Shown here: positions 12,640 to 54,751 of the stretch, in pieces
Layout: each line of letters begins with the position of its first letter
How positions within the stretch are numbered: the stretch's first letter is position 1
Source: Elusimicrobia bacterium UBA4817
GTDB lineage: Bacteria > Elusimicrobiota > UBA8919
DNA length: 64,000 nt
Direction of reading: 5' to 3'
Assembly (NCBI GenBank): GCA_002402375.1
Contig: DHFT01000039.1
Span: 12,809-76,808 of the forward strand
Notes under the pieces: generated by a model
What the model was told of the DNA's origin: nothing
The model's input: the letters and a program-made list of their open reading frames with translations, nothing else
Databases searched by the model: none
Program-made: the position numbers and the translations under genes

Positions 12640-13050
12640 TTATTTGATTTTTCGTTTTGCTTTTATTTTATCCAGAATACCGTTAACAAATTTTCCGGAT
12701 TCATCCGTGGAAAAATCTTTTGCAAGTTCTATTGCTTCGTTTATTACTGCCTTCGGGGGTGTAGAAAGAGCATAGAGCAGTTCGTAAGAAGCAAGTCGCA
12801 AAATTGCCCTATCAACGGCGGCCATTCTATCAATATCCCAATTTTCCGCCGTCTGTTTTAGCAGTTCGTTTATTTCATCAAGATTTGCAATCGTTCCGTC
12901 AATAAGTTCCTGCGCGAATGCAACAATGTCCTTATCATAATTTTTTGTCTGCCAGAACGCTTTTTCTGCTTCTGCTTTGGTCAATTTACAGACATCCACA
13001 GCGTAGAGTATTTGCATTGCGCATTCTCGCGATATTCTTCTTGAACCCAT
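12640..13050 (-). CDS. nusB: transcription antitermination factor NusB
   Basis: 136 aa; '[18 protein letters not shown]' NusB family; conserved ribH-nusB adjacency. Confidence 0.85.
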
Positions 13051-13097
13051 TTTTTTGCTCCATCAATTCATTCCCCGACGATATAAGAGACCCTTCA

Positions 13098-13130
13098 CTT
13101 CGTTCAGGGTGACACTGTTGAGAAAGTTCA
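13098..13130. repeat. perfect 12-bp-stem palindrome 'tgacactgttga-gaaag-tcaacagtgtca' (REP-like, GTGACAC family)
   Basis: Seen directly between the ribH stop and nusB start; followed by TTTTATT on the plus strand. Its arms share 'gacactg' with the hairpins at 47165..47250. Confidence 0.6.
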
Positions 13131-13136
13131 ACAGTG

Positions 13137-13604
13137 TCATTTTATTACAGTATTCAGATTTGCCATCTCTATTGCCGTCATTGCTGCCTCGGCGCCTTTG
13201 TTGCCGGATTTTGTCCCTGCCCGTTCAATTGCCTGCTCAAGATTATCCGTCGTAATAACTCCGAAAACCGCCGGCACGCCGGTTTTAAGTCCGGTTGATG
13301 CAATCCCTTTTGTTACCTCCGCTGCGATATAATCAAAATGCGGCGTGTCGCCTTTTATGACCGCGCCCAGACAAATCACAGCGTCATATTTTTTTGACGA
13401 TGCGAGTTTGTTTGCCGCAAACGGAATTTCAAAAGAGCCCGGCACCCAAACGATGTCCAGATTTTTTTCGTCGGCATCGTGCCGTTTAAGCGCATCCAAA
13501 CATCCGTCTAAAAGTTTGGAAGTGATGAATTCGTTGAACCTTGAAATCACAATTCCAAATTTCAATCCCTTTGCCACTAGTTTCCCTTCAAAAACCTTTC
13601 CCAT
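13137..13604 (-). CDS. ribH: 6,7-dimethyl-8-ribityllumazine synthase
   Basis: 155 aa; '[14 protein letters not shown]…[15 protein letters not shown]' lumazine synthase signature. Confidence 0.9.
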
Positions 13605-17668: not shown

Positions 17669-17701
17669 GAATAAATTCACCTTTACAAAAAACATATTAT
17701 A

Positions 17702-17843
17702 CTCTTCTATCATCCGGACTTTACCGTCGGTATCTGAATTTCACAGATTCGGTCCCGAACATTTTTAATAAAAAATGTGAGAGATTAGCGGACTTTTACC
17801 GCCGGTCGGGAATTCCTGTTTAGGTCACCCCACCCCGAAGAGT
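17702..17843 (-). promoter_or_regulatory. FMN riboswitch (RFN element) leading the rib operon
   Basis: The minus strand reads 'CTCTTCGGGGTGGGGTGACCTAAACAGGAATTCCCGACCGGCGGTAAAAGTCCGC…GGGACCGAATCTGTGAAATTCAGATACCGACGGTAAAGTCCGGATGATAGAAGAG', matching the RFN consensus blocks GGGG(C/T)GGGTGAAATTCCC, GACCGGCGGTA.AAGTCCGC and CCGACGGTAAAGTCCGGATG. Confidence 0.85.
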
Positions 17844-17849
17844 AATGTA

Positions 17850-17877: not shown

Positions 17878-18797
17878 TTAAATTTTTTGGAAAAAGAAAT
17901 ATAAGTGGTTCTGTCAAACACGCTGTTGACGGCACTTGCAAAATCAAATCCGAAATCCTTCCATAGTATTCCGATCCCGAAATTTGTTCCGTTAATTTTT
18001 CCCGCTTTGTTGAGATATCCGCCTCTTAAAAAAAGCCAGTTGAGGTAAGAGTACTCGCCGCTGAATCTCGGACGGAATATATCATCTTTTTCCCGTAAAA
18101 AATCAAAAGATACGTCAAAATTATTTTCGCGGTTATTTAACAGGGTATATGACAGTCCGCATCGGACGGAACTTGGCAGGTCGTCTTTTACAGGGTCGTT
18201 GGAATAAATGACCTTTGTTCCGAAATTTTCGCCGGAAAATCCGAGTTTAAGATTTCTTACAAAATCAACTTTATATAAAATTCCGAAATCAATTGCTTGG
18301 GCGTTCCCGATAGTTTTTCCAAAAATGGGATTTTTTTCATATCTGTAAATGTATTTTAGATTTATTCCGAAGGAGAGATTGTGAAAAAGATTTCTTCCAT
18401 AGGCGACAGAAAACGCCCAGTCGTTCCATATCAGTTCGCCCATATCGTAGTTAAATTCGTCGGTAACGGGTATCGGGGTAATTCTGTAACTTAATATGCC
18501 GATAGCCATGGCGCCATGTTTTTTTAGCGACAACAGTCCGCCGAGATACTGCATAACGGCATCGCCTTGAGGCGCCGGCGAATGGGAAAAAGTTATTTCG
18601 CTTTCCGAATCCGCAATGCCTGCCGGATTATGAAAAAATGATGATGCGTCTAATTTTGTTGCGGCGGATGTTTCAGCTAAAGAAATTATTCTTGCGCCTC
18701 CTGCCAGTTTCAGAAAATCGGCGCCGGTGTGAGTGGAAGCGTAGAGGCAATTAAAAATTAAAAATGGAAAATTAAAAATTAAAATGATTGTTTTCAT
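17874..18797 (-). CDS. FadL/PorV/PorQ-like outer-membrane beta-barrel protein (T9SS-associated?)
   Basis: 307 aa, signal peptide, N-terminal 'GADFLKLAGGARIISLAETSAATKLDASSFFHNPAGIA' FadL/PorV-like motif, alternating beta-strand pattern; tandem paralogue of the next gene. Confidence 0.5.
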   Translation of the reverse strand: MKTIILIFNFPFLIFNCLYASTHTGADFLKLAGGARIISLAETSAATKLDASSFFHNPAGIADSESEITFSHSPAPQGDAVMQYLGGLLSLKKHGAMAIGILSYRITPIPVTDEFNYDMGELIWNDWAFSVAYGRNLFHNLSFGINLKYIYRYEKNPIFGKTIGNAQAIDFGILYKVDFVRNLKLGFSGENFGTKVIYSNDPVKDDLPSSVRCGLSYTLLNNRENNFDVSFDFLREKDDIFRPRFSGEYSYLNWLFLRGGYLNKAGKINGTNFGIGILWKDFGFDFASAVNSVFDRTTYISFSKKFN

Positions 18798-19741
18798 TAA
18801 AATTTGCAGTTCAGCGTAAATCTGTTAACGTCGGTCAATTTTTCATGTGAGGTGAATGAGTAGTCAATGGAGATTATTTTTGCCGAAAATCCCGCACCGA
18901 AAGAATAGTTCTGCAATGTTGTATATCCCGCCCGCAGTTTGAAATTTTTGACGGCGTTAAGTTCAACTCCCAAATTACCGTTCAAGATATTTTCTCTCTG
19001 TCTAACCCCGTCAACGGACAAAAGCAGTTTATCAAAATTCCTGCTTATTCCCAGTCGCAATTCCGACGGTAAAACGTCCTTTTCGCCGCCGAATGAAATT
19101 TTACTGCCTACATTTCTTATACAAAAACCGAAATCAAAAGGCAGGTTGTAGCCGGAATATAATAATCCCAAATCCGCCGCAATTGCCGTTGCCGATTCCC
19201 CTGCCAGTTTCTCGTTCAGATATTTTACGGTTATTCCTGCATCCAAAGGATAGATTTTTCTTGCGTAGGAAATACCGGCGACCGCGTCGCTGTTTAAGAA
19301 TTCGTCCCGTCCTATTCCGCGTTCATCTCTTTCAACATCTTTTGATGACAGATATTTTAATGTTATGCCGATGTTTCCTTTAATTTTTTGGATGTATGTT
19401 GAGAACTTCATATCCTCAAGATTGACATCTTCAAAATATTCCGAATGCGAAAAAGAAAAATTATAGTCGGGCAGGTTTGAAATTGCTGCGGGATTAAAAT
19501 CCAACGCTCCAAGATTTTCCGATAAGGATGTGACCGCTTCCGCCATGGCGGATGTTTTTGCCTCGGGGCTGATTCGTAGCAACAGTCCGGCAGATGTTCC
19601 GGTGTCAGAGGCAGAGAACAAAGTTAAAGGTATAAGGTTAAAGGTTAAAATAAAGCAGATGAAAAATGAAAAATGAAAAGTTGAAATTTTGGCAGTATTT
19701 AGACCTTTAACTTTTAATTTTAACCTTCTTTTTATTTTCAT
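18797..19741 (-). CDS. FadL/PorV/PorQ-like outer-membrane beta-barrel protein (paralogue)
   Basis: 314 aa, signal peptide, 'GTSAGLLLRISPEAKTSAMAEAVTSLSENLGALDFNPAAIS' motif, C-terminal Phe; start overlaps the downstream gene. Confidence 0.5.
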   Translation of the reverse strand: MKIKRRLKLKVKGLNTAKISTFHFSFFICFILTFNLIPLTLFSASDTGTSAGLLLRISPEAKTSAMAEAVTSLSENLGALDFNPAAISNLPDYNFSFSHSEYFEDVNLEDMKFSTYIQKIKGNIGITLKYLSSKDVERDERGIGRDEFLNSDAVAGISYARKIYPLDAGITVKYLNEKLAGESATAIAADLGLLYSGYNLPFDFGFCIRNVGSKISFGGEKDVLPSELRLGISRNFDKLLLSVDGVRQRENILNGNLGVELNAVKNFKLRAGYTTLQNYSFGAGFSAKIISIDYSFTSHEKLTDVNRFTLNCKF

Positions 19742-45180: not shown

Positions 45181-45222
45181 AAAAAATCAAGAAAAAAAGA
45201 AGACGGCACTTAAGTGCCGTCT
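45181..45222 (-). terminator. intrinsic terminator downstream of the TonB-dependent receptor
   Basis: Perfect hairpin 'agacggcac-ttaa-gtgccgtct' followed on the minus strand by a long U-tract. Confidence 0.75.
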
Positions 45223-45244: not shown

Positions 45245-47110
45245 TTAGTCCCACAGATACAGATTTATCCCGCCTGAAAATGTTCTTCCGGGAAGCGGAT
45301 AATCTTCTCTCGCGAAATATCTTTTGTTAAAAATATTTTCACAGGAAAAATAAACTTCTGCCTGAAGAATTTTCCGGCTTACTTTCAAGTTCGCAAGAGT
45401 ATATCCTGGAATTTTTGGTTTCTCTATTTTATGTGTGTATTCAACACCGAGTTTTGTTTGAAGTTTCAGTGGTGCTAAATAATTCAGAAAATAATTCAAG
45501 CGATGTTTTGGTGTGTATTGCAAAATTTTATATGTTCCCCCCTCCTGTTTCCCTTTACTTTCAAGGAAGGTATAATTCAAACTCTGTGTCAGTTTTTTCA
45601 CAATACTACTTTCTGCTTCAATCTCAACTCCTCTTGAAAAAACCTTGCCGACATTTGAAGGTGTCCATATACCAGTTTCATCAGGCGCCCATTGAATAAA
45701 ATCCTTTACATCGCTGTAAAATAGTGTTATCTTTGAAACCAGAATTTCTTTTAATTTATACTCAATACCAAAATCACTCCCAACAGATGTTTCAGGTTTT
45801 AAGTTTGGATTTCCCGGCATAAATGGGTCAGGCCAGTATAAATCATTAAATGTTGGTGCCCTGAAAGCCCGTCCAATGGTTGAAGAAAGTTTGAAATTAT
45901 TGTTGATTTTGTAGATATTGACAATCCTCGGATTCAACTGCCCACCAAAAACATTGTTGTAATCGTATCTTGTTCCAATTGTTGTTGTCATCGGTTCAAG
46001 ATTAAATGTTTTTTGAGCAAAAATTGCAGAAGCGTCTGTCCATTTGTCAATATCGGTTGTTTTGGTAATTTCATTCTTTTTCTTATATCTGTCGTTTTTT
46101 CCCTCAACTCCTGCAGTTATGTCATACAAAGTATCAATCTGTATATTTGCTCCAAGGGTTTTTGAGATACCAATATCATCATCAGGTGAAAAATCCCAAG
46201 TTTCAGGATGTGTATCCGGGTCTTTGTAATGAAGATTATTCTGCTGAAAATAAATTTTGGATTGCAATTTTGTTTCATTCGCAATCTCTTTTTTGTAATT
46301 TAACTCGTAAGATTGTTTGGTTGTTTTTTGATTAGCATTTGGCGTCTCTGCTGTTTTTTCTTTTTCATTGTCATAATCAGCAAGTTTTGTGAAATTTCGT
46401 CCAGGTGTTTCAAGTTCTGATGTTAAGAAACCGTTGCTTAAAGAGATTTCTCCGTATTTTTCTAAATCATAACCGATTTTTGCGGAAAAATCCGTTGAAT
46501 CATAATCAGAATTATCCCTGAAACCGTCCGTTATATTTTTCCCGCCCGATAAACATAAGTTTGCTTTTCCCGGCATAGCGGTAAAGTTCATTTTGTAATT
46601 TTGCGTGTTGAAACTTCCCTGCTCAATGCCGATTTCGGTTTTGGGTTTTACGGCGGTTGCTTTTTTTGTGATGATGTTGACAACACCGCCCAAGGCATTT
46701 GCGCCGTAAAGGGCGGACGCCGGACCGCGCAGTATCTCAATCCGTTCTATATTTTCAGACGGAATTTCGGTAAGATTTGCCGAACCCAGCGATGTGTCGT
46801 TAACCGTGCGGCCGTCAACCATAACAAGTACCTGCTGTGCGGAAGCCCCGCCGCTTCGGATTCTCAGTTCAGATTGCGAACCGAGTGTGCCGTATTTTGA
46901 GACCTCTACAATACCGGTTTTATTTTTCAGAATTTCACCGACATTTTTTGCGTCGGAATTTTTTATTTCCTCTTCCGATATCACGGTTATATTTGTCGCT
47001 GTTTTTTCAACAGAAACCTCTTTTCTTAATCCGATAAACACTGCTGTTTCCTGTGCATAAAGCACACCCATTCCCGCTAATAGTATTGCTCCCCAAAAAA
47101 CTTTTTTCAT
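45245..47110 (-). CDS. btuB: TonB-dependent outer-membrane receptor (BtuB-like, cobalamin/corrinoid)
   Basis: 621 aa; signal peptide, TonB box, plug and 22-strand barrel ending in Phe/Trp; sits directly 3' of a cobalamin riboswitch. Confidence 0.8.
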   Translation of the reverse strand: MKKVFWGAILLAGMGVLYAQETAVFIGLRKEVSVEKTATNITVISEEEIKNSDAKNVGEILKNKTGIVEVSKYGTLGSQSELRIRSGGASAQQVLVMVDGRTVNDTSLGSANLTEIPSENIERIEILRGPASALYGANALGGVVNIITKKATAVKPKTEIGIEQGSFNTQNYKMNFTAMPGKANLCLSGGKNITDGFRDNSDYDSTDFSAKIGYDLEKYGEISLSNGFLTSELETPGRNFTKLADYDNEKEKTAETPNANQKTTKQSYELNYKKEIANETKLQSKIYFQQNNLHYKDPDTHPETWDFSPDDDIGISKTLGANIQIDTLYDITAGVEGKNDRYKKKNEITKTTDIDKWTDASAIFAQKTFNLEPMTTTIGTRYDYNNVFGGQLNPRIVNIYKINNNFKLSSTIGRAFRAPTFNDLYWPDPFMPGNPNLKPETSVGSDFGIEYKLKEILVSKITLFYSDVKDFIQWAPDETGIWTPSNVGKVFSRGVEIEAESSIVKKLTQSLNYTFLESKGKQEGGTYKILQYTPKHRLNYFLNYLAPLKLQTKLGVEYTHKIEKPKIPGYTLANLKVSRKILQAEVYFSCENIFNKRYFAREDYPLPGRTFSGGINLYLWD

Positions 47111-47289
47111 TTTTCCTCCAAAATTTTTATTTACTATTTTTCCATTTCTACTTTTAACCTGACGCGTAGCGTCACACTGAACTTGATTCAGTGTCTCGTT
47201 GAGAGATGCCGAAACTAGTTCGGCATGACACTTCGTGTCACTTTTAAGTTTTTATTTTCATTTCTGCCTCCCTTTCTCTCGAAGAGAAT

Positions 47290-47440
47290 TTTATTGCAGA
47301 CAGACAGATTTCCTGACTCAGGTTCGTCCGAAATTTCGCCTTCCCATCCCTATTTATCCGGACAGTGGCATTTATGAAATTTCATCCCCTTCACAGTAGC
47401 GGGACTGTTCCGGAATTACACCGGATTCCCTATTCTGCCT
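47290..47440 (-). promoter_or_regulatory. cobalamin (B12) riboswitch #1
   Basis: The minus strand reads 'AATAGGGAATCCGGTGTAATTCCGGAACAGTCCCGCTACTGTGAAGGGGATGAAA…AATGCCACTGTCCGG…GGGAAGGCG', containing the B12 box GCCACTG and the conserved GGTG.AA.TCC / CCCGC.ACTGT elements. Confidence 0.85.
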
Positions 47441-48216
47441 ACATTTGACACCAAAATTATATACGGTTTTTTTGATATAGGATTTTTTTCTACGACTACA
47501 ACCGTTTTATAAACCTCTTCAATAATTTGATAGGTTAAAACATCCGAAGGTATTCCGATTTTATGCATATTGCCGTTATTGAGAAGCATTATTCTATCGC
47601 AGTACTCGCTTGCTAAATTCAAATCGTGCAAAACCATCATCACCGTAAGTCCAAGGTTTGTATTTAATTTTTTTGTAAGGTCCAAAATTCTTATCTGATG
47701 CGCTATATCTAAATGCGCCGTCGGTTCATCCAGCACAAGCAGTTTCGGTTGTTGAACAATAGCACGGGCGATAAAAACAAGTTGTCTTTCACCGCCGCTT
47801 AATTCCAATATAGGACGGTTTCGTAAATTAAATGTTTCGGTTAATAACATTGCTTGTTCAACAATTTCTTCGTCTTGTTTCGTTTCTAAAAATTGTAATT
47901 TGGAATGATATGGCGTTCTGCCTAATTGCACGATTTCTTCCGCAGTCATGTTAAAGTATGATTCTGAAAATTGCGTCACCACAGCCATTTTTTTAGCCAG
48001 TTCGTTAAGTCCTGTTTTTTTTAGAGATTTCCCTTCAAAAATAATCTGTCCTGTCTGCGGTTTAATTATCTTACTTATCGCCCGAAGCAGTGTTGTTTTA
48101 CCGGAACCGTTAGGGCCGATTATTCCGAGTATTTCTTTGTTTTTTAGTTCAAAGTTAATATCTTTTAAGACGAACTTATTATTGTATCCGCAAACAAGAT
48201 TTTTTACTTCAAGCAT
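47416..48216 (-). CDS. btuD: ABC transporter ATP-binding protein (BtuD/FecE-type)
   Basis: 266 aa; Walker A 'GPNGSGKTT', 'LSGGERQ', Walker B 'LLVLDEPT'. Confidence 0.85.
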   Translation of the reverse strand: MLEVKNLVCGYNNKFVLKDINFELKNKEILGIIGPNGSGKTTLLRAISKIIKPQTGQIIFEGKSLKKTGLNELAKKMAVVTQFSESYFNMTAEEIVQLGRTPYHSKLQFLETKQDEEIVEQAMLLTETFNLRNRPILELSGGERQLVFIARAIVQQPKLLVLDEPTAHLDIAHQIRILDLTKKLNTNLGLTVMMVLHDLNLASEYCDRIMLLNNGNMHKIGIPSDVLTYQIIEEVYKTVVVVEKNPISKKPYIILVSNVGRIGNPV

Positions 48217-53689: not shown

Positions 53690-53850
53690 AAAAAACCCAA
53701 CTCCAGAGAAGTTGAGCAAACTTTCTCCCCGCGGAGTTTTTGTAATTGATAGACCGGGCTTCGCTTCGCTCGGTCGGACTAAAATCCGACCTACAAAAAC
53801 ATCACCGTTGCGGGGCAGCTTCCGAATTACACGGAATTCCTTCAATTACA
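53690..53850 (-). promoter_or_regulatory. cobalamin riboswitch #2 with terminator-type expression platform
   Basis: The minus strand reads 'GAAGGAATTCCGTGTAATTCGGAAGCTGCCCCGCAACGGTGATG…AAGCCCGGTC…CGGGGAGAAAG', nearly identical in its conserved blocks to riboswitch #1. It is followed by 'CAACTTCTCTGGAGTTGGGTTTTTTGTTT' (hairpin plus U-tract) just before the cobO ATG. Confidence 0.75.
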
Positions 53851-53857
53851 ATTTTTA

Positions 53858-53885
53858 ATTATATTATTTTTAACAAAAATGTCAA
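53858..53885 (-). promoter_or_regulatory. sigma70 promoter (TTGACA-N16-TATAAT) for riboswitch #2 and the cob operon
   Basis: The minus strand reads TTGACATTTTTGTTAAAAATAATATAAT, ending about 7 nt before the aptamer. Confidence 0.5.
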
Positions 53886-54751
53886 GAAAAAAGATGACTA
53901 TGATTTTTTTCCAAATTGTTTTTATATTTTTTCAGTTCTATAACAGCAGAATAAGGCACTTTTGTCTTTCCCATTATAGGCGGCTCGCCGTTCATTGCAC
54001 CGTGGCAGTCGCTTCCCCCTGTCATAATCATTCCGAATTTGTCCGCCATTTTTTTGAATTTGTCGGTTTCATCCGCCGAATGTTTTGTGTGCCAAACCTC
54101 AATACCCTTTAATCCGAAATTAGCAAGAGATTTTACAACATTGCAATTGATACTGTTAAAATGCGGATGCGCCAAAACCGGAATCCCGCCGACTTGTAAA
54201 ATCATTTTTATAGCTTCGTCGGGTGATAAACTGAATTTCGGAACATATGCAGGTTTACCGTCGCCGAGATATTTCCAGAATGCTTCCTGCGTATGCGAAA
54301 CGGATTTATTTTCAACGAGCATTTTTGCGAAATGAAGCCGCCCTATTACTCCGATGCCCGCTATTTCAAACAGCCGTTGTTCGTCAATCGTAATTCCCAG
54401 ACCTTTCAATTTATCCAAAATATGATATGCCCGTCTTTCTCTTGCCTTTCTGAAAAGTTTTAATTTTTGCTGAAAAGATGAATCCTCCCAGTTTATGAAA
54501 TATCCGAGTATGTGCATTTCCTGCTGATGAGAATTTTTTAATTCCACCGAAAGTTCTATTCCCGGTATTACTTCAATCCCTCTTTTTGAACCCTCTTTGA
54601 TTGCACTGGGTATTCCTTCGGTTGTATCGTGGTCGGTTATGCTGATGGTTGCAAGTCCTACTTTCTGTGCATACCTTACGCTTTCTTCCGGCGAGAAAGT
54701 TCCGTCTGAGTATTTTGTGTGAGTATGCAAATCCGCAAAAAGAGTATCCAT
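53882..54751 (-). CDS. PHP-domain phosphoesterase (TrpH/YciV-like)
   Basis: 289 aa; 'ADLHTHTKYSDG…ITDHD' PHP motifs. Confidence 0.75.
   Translation of the reverse strand: MDTLFADLHTHTKYSDGTFSPEESVRYAQKVGLATISITDHDTTEGIPSAIKEGSKRGIEVIPGIELSVELKNSHQQEMHILGYFINWEDSSFQQKLKLFRKARERRAYHILDKLKGLGITIDEQRLFEIAGIGVIGRLHFAKMLVENKSVSHTQEAFWKYLGDGKPAYVPKFSLSPDEAIKMILQVGGIPVLAHPHFNSINCNVVKSLANFGLKGIEVWHTKHSADETDKFKKMADKFGMIMTGGSDCHGAMNGEPPIMGKTKVPYSAVIELKKYKNNLEKNHSHLFS

Follow-up and report, generated by a model that had tools for sequence, protein, structure and literature searches.

A dispersed palindromic repeat in the leader of a B12-riboswitch-controlled btuB-like gene of Elusimicrobiota

The four hairpins that separate a cobalamin riboswitch from a btuB-like gene in a 64,000-nucleotide stretch of DNA from an uncultured Elusimicrobia bacterium (the window) are best explained as one copy of a dispersed Elusimicrobiota palindromic repeat, located where the btuB leader has a variable spacer. 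We assign a probability of about 0.85 to this reading, in which the hairpins are a tolerated passenger and the expression platform of the riboswitch is a conserved segment upstream of them.

The aptamer, the hairpins and the btuD-like and btuB-like genes are all located on the minus strand. The aptamer (47470..47286) matches Rfam family RF00174 over its full length (model positions 1–189 of 189) with 100.6 bits and E = 5.7e-24 against a threshold of 31.5 bits, which confirms the cobalamin riboswitch called in an earlier note on this DNA. It contains the B12 box GCCACUG (47369..47363) and an L5 loop with the sequence UCCCG (47404..47400), identical to the consensus published for cobalamin riboswitches that have been characterised, in which it makes the regulatory kissing loop (PMC10327014). 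The orthologous aptamer of contig L001 scores 93.3 bits against the same family. Upstream of and partly within the aptamer is an open reading frame (48216..47416) for a btuD/fepC-type ABC ATPase, assigned to heme/corrinoid ABC ATPase families with E values of ∼1e-70. The last 55 nt of this frame form the 5′ part of the aptamer (47416–47470). The overlap of the aptamer with the end of btuD had been described before and is real, but the B12 box itself lies downstream of the btuD-like stop codon (47418..47416), which sits in an aptamer loop. The corresponding overlap in L001 is 72 nt. Ribosomes completing btuD on read-through transcripts would unfold P1–P3 of the riboswitch.

The gene downstream of the leader encodes a TonB-dependent receptor of 621 residues (47110..45245). 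Its best NCBIfam family is TonB-B12, with a score of 218 bits that lies below the curated cutoff of 599.7; this agrees with the proposal of a btuB-type target gene. The leader measures 175 nt from the end of the aptamer to the btuB ATG (47110..47108) and ends with the Shine-Dalgarno sequence GGAGG (47119..47115), which is conserved as UUUUUGGAGGAAAAAUG in most orthologs and belongs to a ribosome-binding site that has the form TTTTTGGAGGAAAAATG in most leaders. A hairpin with a 9-bp GC-rich stem and a T-tail (45222..45201, minus strand), 23 nt past the btuB stop, probably serves as the intrinsic terminator at the end of the riboswitch-controlled unit. The gene order runs from a weak second riboswitch through corrinoid salvage genes (including cobT and cobS) and a btuF-, btuC- and btuD-like ABC transporter to the strong riboswitch, the receptor and the terminator. 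The second cobalamin riboswitch (53901..53731, minus strand) scores 32.5 bits, barely above the threshold, and its P6 region is short. Downstream of it come a clear terminator hairpin with a U-run (53690–53740) and a cobO/btuR-like gene, and this riboswitch heads the cob/btuFCD cluster that runs into the first riboswitch. An FMN riboswitch (17698–17846, minus strand, 96.1 bits) is also present in the window, upstream of minus-strand ORFs.

The four-hairpin block (47245..47155, minus strand) was delimited by a pattern search, by a covariance model of its two-hairpin unit (model R1) and by homologous copies elsewhere. It starts 3 nt past the stop codon of a short open reading frame, the mini-ORF described below, and is flanked by TTAAAAG on either side. 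Four perfect palindromes had been reported and four are present, H1 (tgacac/gtgtca, 6 bp, 47240–47226), H2 (atgccgaa/ttcggcat, 8 bp, 47226–47206), H3 (acactgaa/ttcagtgt, 8 bp, 47194–47174) and H4 (tgacgc/gcgtca, 6 bp, 47174–47160); the seventh pair claimed for the first stem, however, is only a G-U in the RNA, and the stems of H2 and H4 are longer than was given. When the right half of the block (H3 and H4) is reverse-complemented, it shares about 75% identity with the left half (H1 and H2), and the terminal hairpins are inverted copies. A degenerate 24-mer, TGACRCGWAGYGTCAYRCYGAACT, has exactly two matches in the window, one per block half and on opposite strands, where none is expected. The block is thus a head-to-head dimer of a two-hairpin unit of ∼45 nt, with one unit at 47245..47201 on the minus strand and the other at 47155..47199 on the plus strand; the two halves score 70.7 and 64.1 bits with R1.

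Because the left half resembles the reverse complement of the right half, the block can pair in more than one way, as the earlier note had suspected. The minimum free energy (MFE) fold of the 91-nt block is one long imperfect hairpin of −37.8 kcal/mol, compared with −30.4 kcal/mol for the four local hairpins. In both the MFE and the centroid folds of the whole 381-nt region, the block pairs with itself only. An Rfam scan of the block at gathering and at permissive E-value thresholds returned no known family, a blastn search of PLSDB plasmids with the block gave no match, and a literature search on REP elements in riboswitch leaders and on palindromic repeats of Elusimicrobia retrieved nothing relevant.

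The unit recurs in places that have no relation to btuB. Scanning JGI metagenomes with TGACRCGWAGYGTCAYRCYGAACT yielded eight contigs, one of them a chance match in a GC-rich coding sequence and the other seven representing three independent non-btuB contexts. With R1, about 12 distinct elements were identified across the window and contigs L021, L023, L024 and L026, nearly all of them head-to-head pairs of 80–130 nt, located in intergenic DNA, rRNA spacers, one 23S rRNA gene and the btuB leader. Contig L023, a 3.3-kb rRNA operon fragment with 23S rRNA, tRNA-Ala and tRNA-Ile, carries four elements: one inside the 23S rRNA gene (384–464), which resembles an intervening sequence (IVS) with long complementary arms, and another three in the spacers that surround tRNA-Ile and tRNA-Ala (2220–2306, 2433–2524 and 2768–2899). 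Three elements lie within 11 kb on L021, a solo unit common to L021 together with two paired elements on L026, and one element on L024. The window itself holds a second locus of the family, a diverged solo unit (13143..13085, minus strand) with the sequence aaaaTGACACTGTTGA-actttc-TCAACAGTGTCA-CCCTgaacgaagtgaAGGGTCTCTT and a 12-bp first stem, in the gap between the minus-strand ORFs 12640..13050 and 13137..13604. Under default filters R1 gives it 24.3 bits (E = 4.8e-5), and once the filters are switched off 18 bits (E = 0.0017). The unit is seen with the covariance model only, and searching the window with the leader by blastn-short did not reveal a second copy.

The copies keep their hairpins while their sequences change. 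In an alignment of 15 distinct unit copies, pairing extends to 97.2% of the cells and compensatory changes are seen in 7 of 13 pairs, values that none of 500 shuffles equalled; this alignment was fitted to the model and leans towards structure. An independent MAFFT alignment (A4) gave 98.5% paired cells and compensatory changes in 4 of the 13 pairs. Examples of the changes among the 15 copies are GCCGAA/UUCGGC, GCUGAA/UUCAGC and CCCUGAA/UUCAGGG. A typical element begins with TAAAA, the hairpin TGACAC-GAA-GTGTCA and a variable hairpin, often xxCTGAA-N5-TTCAGxx, continues through a linker such as TCTATAGA, and is completed by a second variable hairpin, a TGACAG...CTGTCA-type hairpin and TTTTA. 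In some copies, arrays of GGTTAAAGG/GTTAAAAG border one side and their complement the other. At 19620–19737 of the window, an A-rich GGTTAAAGG/GTTAAAAG stretch faces a complementary T-rich CCTTTAAC... stretch, with no GC-rich hairpin core between them. These arms resemble those flanking the repeats of L021 and L023, and they overlap the predicted 5′ end of ORF 18797..19741 (minus strand), the start of which may be mis-set.

The EF4/LepA protein encoded on L021 is 82–94% identical to proteins of Elusimicrobiota metagenome-assembled genomes (MAGs), and the repeat family is therefore resident in Elusimicrobiota; the BtuB-like protein of the window is itself annotated to an Elusimicrobia MAG. In a tblastn comparison, ORFs from the repeat-bearing contigs revealed no synteny with the window or with the orthologous btuB loci. 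In the sequences analysed, nothing was identified that would point to mobilisation, such as a transposase or a target-site duplication. The TTAAAAG words beside the block were considered as a target-site duplication and rejected as proof of one, both copies being already present at the empty sites of L001 and L011. The words TTAAAAG and TTAAAGG occur around the insertion site in btuB leaders, and the flanking TTAAAAG may be a preferred target or a recombination substrate.

Although the family appears to be undescribed so far, it is a well-known kind of element, REP/BIME-like or MITE-like. Like the REP/BIME elements of Enterobacteria and Pseudomonas, it consists of short imperfect palindromic units (∼35–45 nt) that are dispersed in intergenic and transcribed regions, frequently form inverted pairs with a short linker, and keep their hairpins by compensatory changes. 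REP/BIME elements are known in operons and untranslated regions as generic RNA stability or attenuation elements, and REPs in the strict sense go with a cognate RAYT (REP-associated tyrosine transposase) gene and a conserved 5′ tetranucleotide of the GTAG type. The two groups share no sequence similarity; the unit of the present family is made of two adjacent hairpins, copies also lie inside rRNA genes and spacers, and two were seen in 64 kb. The family is also comparable to the pneumococcal BOX, Neisseria Correia and Rickettsia palindromic elements, which are modular with conserved terminal modules around variable internal ones, measure ∼80–130 nt, insert in transcribed regions and form one long hairpin as a whole; its own terminal modules are UGACAC...GUGUCA-type hairpins with TAAAA/TTTTA ends. 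It differs from them in that the TTAAAAG repeats flanking the block pre-exist in empty sites and in that no cognate transposase is known. The long A-rich and T-rich complementary arms of the copy in the L023 23S gene are reminiscent of 23S rRNA IVSs, which form an extended helix in this way. This likeness applies to other copies only, as both flanks of the btuB copy are A-rich and cannot pair with each other.

The leader of the window was compared with those of orthologous btuB loci, giving eight distinct leaders, of which the seven others belong to BtuB proteins 52–81% identical to that of the window. Contigs L007–L009 encode an identical BtuB and carry an identical leader including the block. 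Two loci, L013 (69%) and L029 (55%), were left out of the comparison because their cobalamin riboswitch is of another, shorter type, which in L029 is combined with a plain terminator. All seven other distinct leaders have the same aptamer, preceded by a corrinoid gene wherever the contig reaches that far (mostly btuD; cobS in L030). None contains the four hairpins, which are absent from L001, L010, L011, L012, L016–L019 and L030, and an R1 scan of the orthologous btuB loci gave no match. The leader comparison thus contradicts the idea that the block is a conserved part of the platform. Absence from orthologs together with recurrence of the unit in the window and in unrelated Elusimicrobiota contexts bears out the earlier suggestion of a REP-like insertion into the leader, and it speaks against the multi-state expression platform that had been offered beside it, being the outcome that the earlier note itself had named as counting against a platform role.

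What occupies the block site differs from lineage to lineage. In L011, the closest ortholog with a readable leader (81% BtuB identity), and in L001 (64%) the site consists of 12 nt, and in L010 (79%) of tandem TTAAAAG only. One short hairpin is found in L016 and L018 (67 and 62%) and one in L019 (61%), an unrelated 53-nt compound palindrome in L012 (74%), and other hairpins in L030 (52%). The site is thus polymorphic for presence of the block, being occupied in the window and L007–L009 and empty in L001 and L011. The hairpin CCUGAU-GAAA-AUCAGG of L016 and L019 resembles the CCUGAA...UUCAGG hairpin of the repeat family, and by this likeness an element may have been at the site for a long time. 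At least three lineages have hairpins there that differ in sequence, which could reflect selection for structure instead of a simple insertion hot spot.

Other parts of the leader vary as well. A second variable site nearer btuB in L010, L012 and L030 carries unrelated palindromes (GTCATTGCGAG...CTCGCAATGAC and GTCATTCCTGC...GGGAATGAC). Unrelated palindromic elements were noted at 2290–2450 of L010, at 2235–2290 and 2375–2460 of L012 and at 2290–2480 of L030; many of the palindromes in these three contigs end in TGTCA/TGACA, as in the repeat family of the window, and a wider superfamily may exist. The stop codon of the mini-ORF and the btuB ATG are separated by as few as 63 and as many as 277 nt. 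Judged from the aligned sequences, the leader is a conserved platform followed by an expandable spacer. Between the block and btuB lies an A-rich motif, UUAAAAGUAGAAAUGGAAAAAU (47157..47136, minus strand), with the ortholog consensus UUAAAAGUGGGAAUGGGAAAAAU; in the form TTAAAAGTGGGAATGGGAAAAAT it is present in 6 of the 8 distinct leaders. The A-rich motif contains a possible tiny ORF, AUG GAA AAA UAG (47145..47134, minus strand), and resembles the GGTTAAAGG/GTTAAAAG arms beside the repeat copies in L021 and L023. L007, which encodes an identical BtuB, differs in sequence from the window 5′ of the aptamer core (L007 1–240 against window 47432–47480), where another P1/P2 half after a TTGACA-like promoter replaces the btuD 3′ end in L007; either the assembly is chimeric across the conserved core of the riboswitch, or the contig comes from a strain in which btuB is a free-standing unit. 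Contigs L008, L009, L011 and L020 break inside the btuB leader.

The part of the leader that is conserved lies directly upstream of the block. A 27-nt segment, UUCUCUUCGAGAGAAAGGGAGGCAGAA (47288..47262, minus strand), contains the sequence CTCTTCGNGAGARAGGGAGG (CUCUUCGNGAGARAGGGAGG), which is invariant in the eight distinct leaders down to 52% BtuB identity. It is followed after 5–6 nt by a mini-ORF in all eight leaders. In the window this predicted ORF reads AUG AAA AUA AAA ACU UAA (47261..47244, minus strand), starts 5 nt after GGGAGG and encodes MKIKT; elsewhere the peptide is MQIKT, MQIKS, MQTKT or, with six codons, MQIKSS (L030), and synonymous changes (CAA/CAG and AUA/AUU) occur among the mini-ORFs.

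In the predicted folds, CUCUU pairs either with GAGAG in a local hairpin (47288..47274) or with the Shine-Dalgarno sequence GGGAGG (47272..47267). The two folds are nearly isoenergetic, at −4.3 kcal/mol with the Shine-Dalgarno sequence free and −5.3 kcal/mol in the MFE fold, with it sequestered. Lying just upstream of the block, the real platform is probably an anti-Shine-Dalgarno/Shine-Dalgarno toggle that acts on the mini-ORF, and we infer that 47288..47259 is the conserved part in which the decision is made. In canonical cobalamin riboswitch platforms (E. coli btuB, env8HyCbl and P. megaterium metE), an L5–L13 kissing loop controls a ribosome-binding-site hairpin or a terminator. The present leader shares with them the full RF00174 match, the L5 sequence and a pyrimidine tract directly next to the aptamer that is able to cover a Shine-Dalgarno sequence. 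In contrast to them, the Shine-Dalgarno sequence and AUG that appear to be controlled belong to a five-codon mini-ORF, the btuB site follows only at the distance given above, and the four hairpins lie outside the platform. The loop of the sequestering fold, CGNGA (candidate L13, CGAGA), is complementary to L5 at only 4 of 5 positions, and the invariance of the segment leaves no covariation for either the toggle or the L5 contact.

Three other explanations of the hairpins were weighed against a passenger repeat. That the block works as a lineage-specific part of the platform, giving more than two output states as a structure past the mini-ORF stop that a terminating ribosome melts or stalls on, or as an RNase III or pause site that decides the fate of the btuB mRNA, is unlikely, even though several observations lean that way: the position of the block 3 nt past the stop, the unrelated hairpins at the same site in L012, L016/L018 and L019, and its two competing folds. 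Long hairpins in 23S rRNA genes and rRNA spacers are typically cleaved by RNase III, and these are places in which copies of the repeat are found. On the other hand, L011, L001 and L010 do without the block and have the same aptamer, platform and mini-ORF, the hairpins at the site have no sequence in common across lineages, the two-hairpin unit also occurs in contexts unrelated to B12, and the predicted folds show no pairing of the block with aptamer, platform or btuB ribosome-binding site.

A terminator or attenuator, or a helix sequestering the btuB ribosome-binding site within a standard long platform, is very improbable. Its one attraction is the MFE fold of the isolated leader, in which UUCUCUUCGAGA pairs across the block with the btuB ribosome-binding region UUUUGGAGGAA. 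With −8.8 kcal/mol, this duplex comes only 7th of 56 in a comparison of that segment against other ribosome-binding sites of the window, and it is missing from the L001 fold and from the whole-leader fold; the pairing was rejected as unspecific. Furthermore, no sense-strand U-tract follows any of the four hairpins, the terminator-like matches in the leader are all on the opposite strand, and the btuB Shine-Dalgarno sequence lies outside all four hairpins. The idea that the hairpins are a chance cluster of palindromes without common origin deserves almost no credence. By count alone the cluster is only modestly unusual: of 100 block shuffles of the 64 kb, 5 contained a 100-nt stretch with at least four distinct perfect hairpins. 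The block goes beyond chance because it is homologous to other copies (cmsearch E values of 1e-16 to 1e-20), with near-identical units carrying compensatory changes at no fewer than 12 other places and with block halves that are inverted copies of each other. The pattern matches, the R1 copies and the covariation refute a chance origin.

With the block taken as a passenger repeat, the following course of events is proposed. A head-to-head dimer of the ∼45-nt unit, composed of an invariant-type hairpin UGACAC-GAA-GUGUCA and a variable hairpin xxCUGAA-N5-UUCAGxx, would have landed in the hypervariable spacer of the leader between two pre-existing UUAAAAG motifs. Because the block would fold on itself, either into four local hairpins or into a single long one, its neighbours would be left undisturbed. 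The insertion would then be neutral for the riboswitch, and the block, most likely tolerated as a passenger, would add no more than a generic effect on RNA stability or processing. The part that reads the riboswitch would be CUCUUCGAGAGAAAGGGAGG-N5-AUG, just upstream of the block. In the presence of B12, L5 (UCCCG) would contact the platform segment and CUCUU would cover GGGAGG, which would block ribosome loading on the mini-ORF; without B12, CUCUU would pair with GAGAG and leave the Shine-Dalgarno sequence free. Loading of the mini-ORF would have to act on btuB 63–277 nt away, most likely by shielding the mRNA against decay or its synthesis against premature termination. Such a distance-independent route is favoured, and direct occlusion or reinitiation disfavoured, because the distance between the mini-ORF and btuB varies.

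A broader version of this scheme can be formulated for the clade, in which the B12 riboswitch gates a conserved Shine-Dalgarno sequence and five-codon mini-ORF (GAAAGGGAGG-N5-AUG...) instead of the ribosome-binding site of btuB itself, as a switchable 5′ stabiliser or anti-polarity element. We regard this version as speculative and rather improbable. A comparable logic is found in the STAB-SD of B. thuringiensis cryIIIA. If the scheme is true, distance-independent gating explains why the spacer serves as a landing pad for palindromic repeats, and hairpins just past the mini-ORF stop might tune the output.

These results caution that not every hairpin behind a riboswitch is part of the switch; here, comparison of orthologs separates a conserved platform of 27 nt from a passenger of ∼90 nt. 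They also reveal an apparently undescribed repeat family in uncultured Elusimicrobiota that invades mRNA leaders, rRNA spacers and one 23S rRNA gene, and that probably contributes to the breaks of metagenome contigs at the btuB locus. The combination of a riboswitch and a mini-ORF with a freely expandable spacer hints at a possible distance-independent coupling to a remote gene, and it is this part of the leader that might repay experiments.
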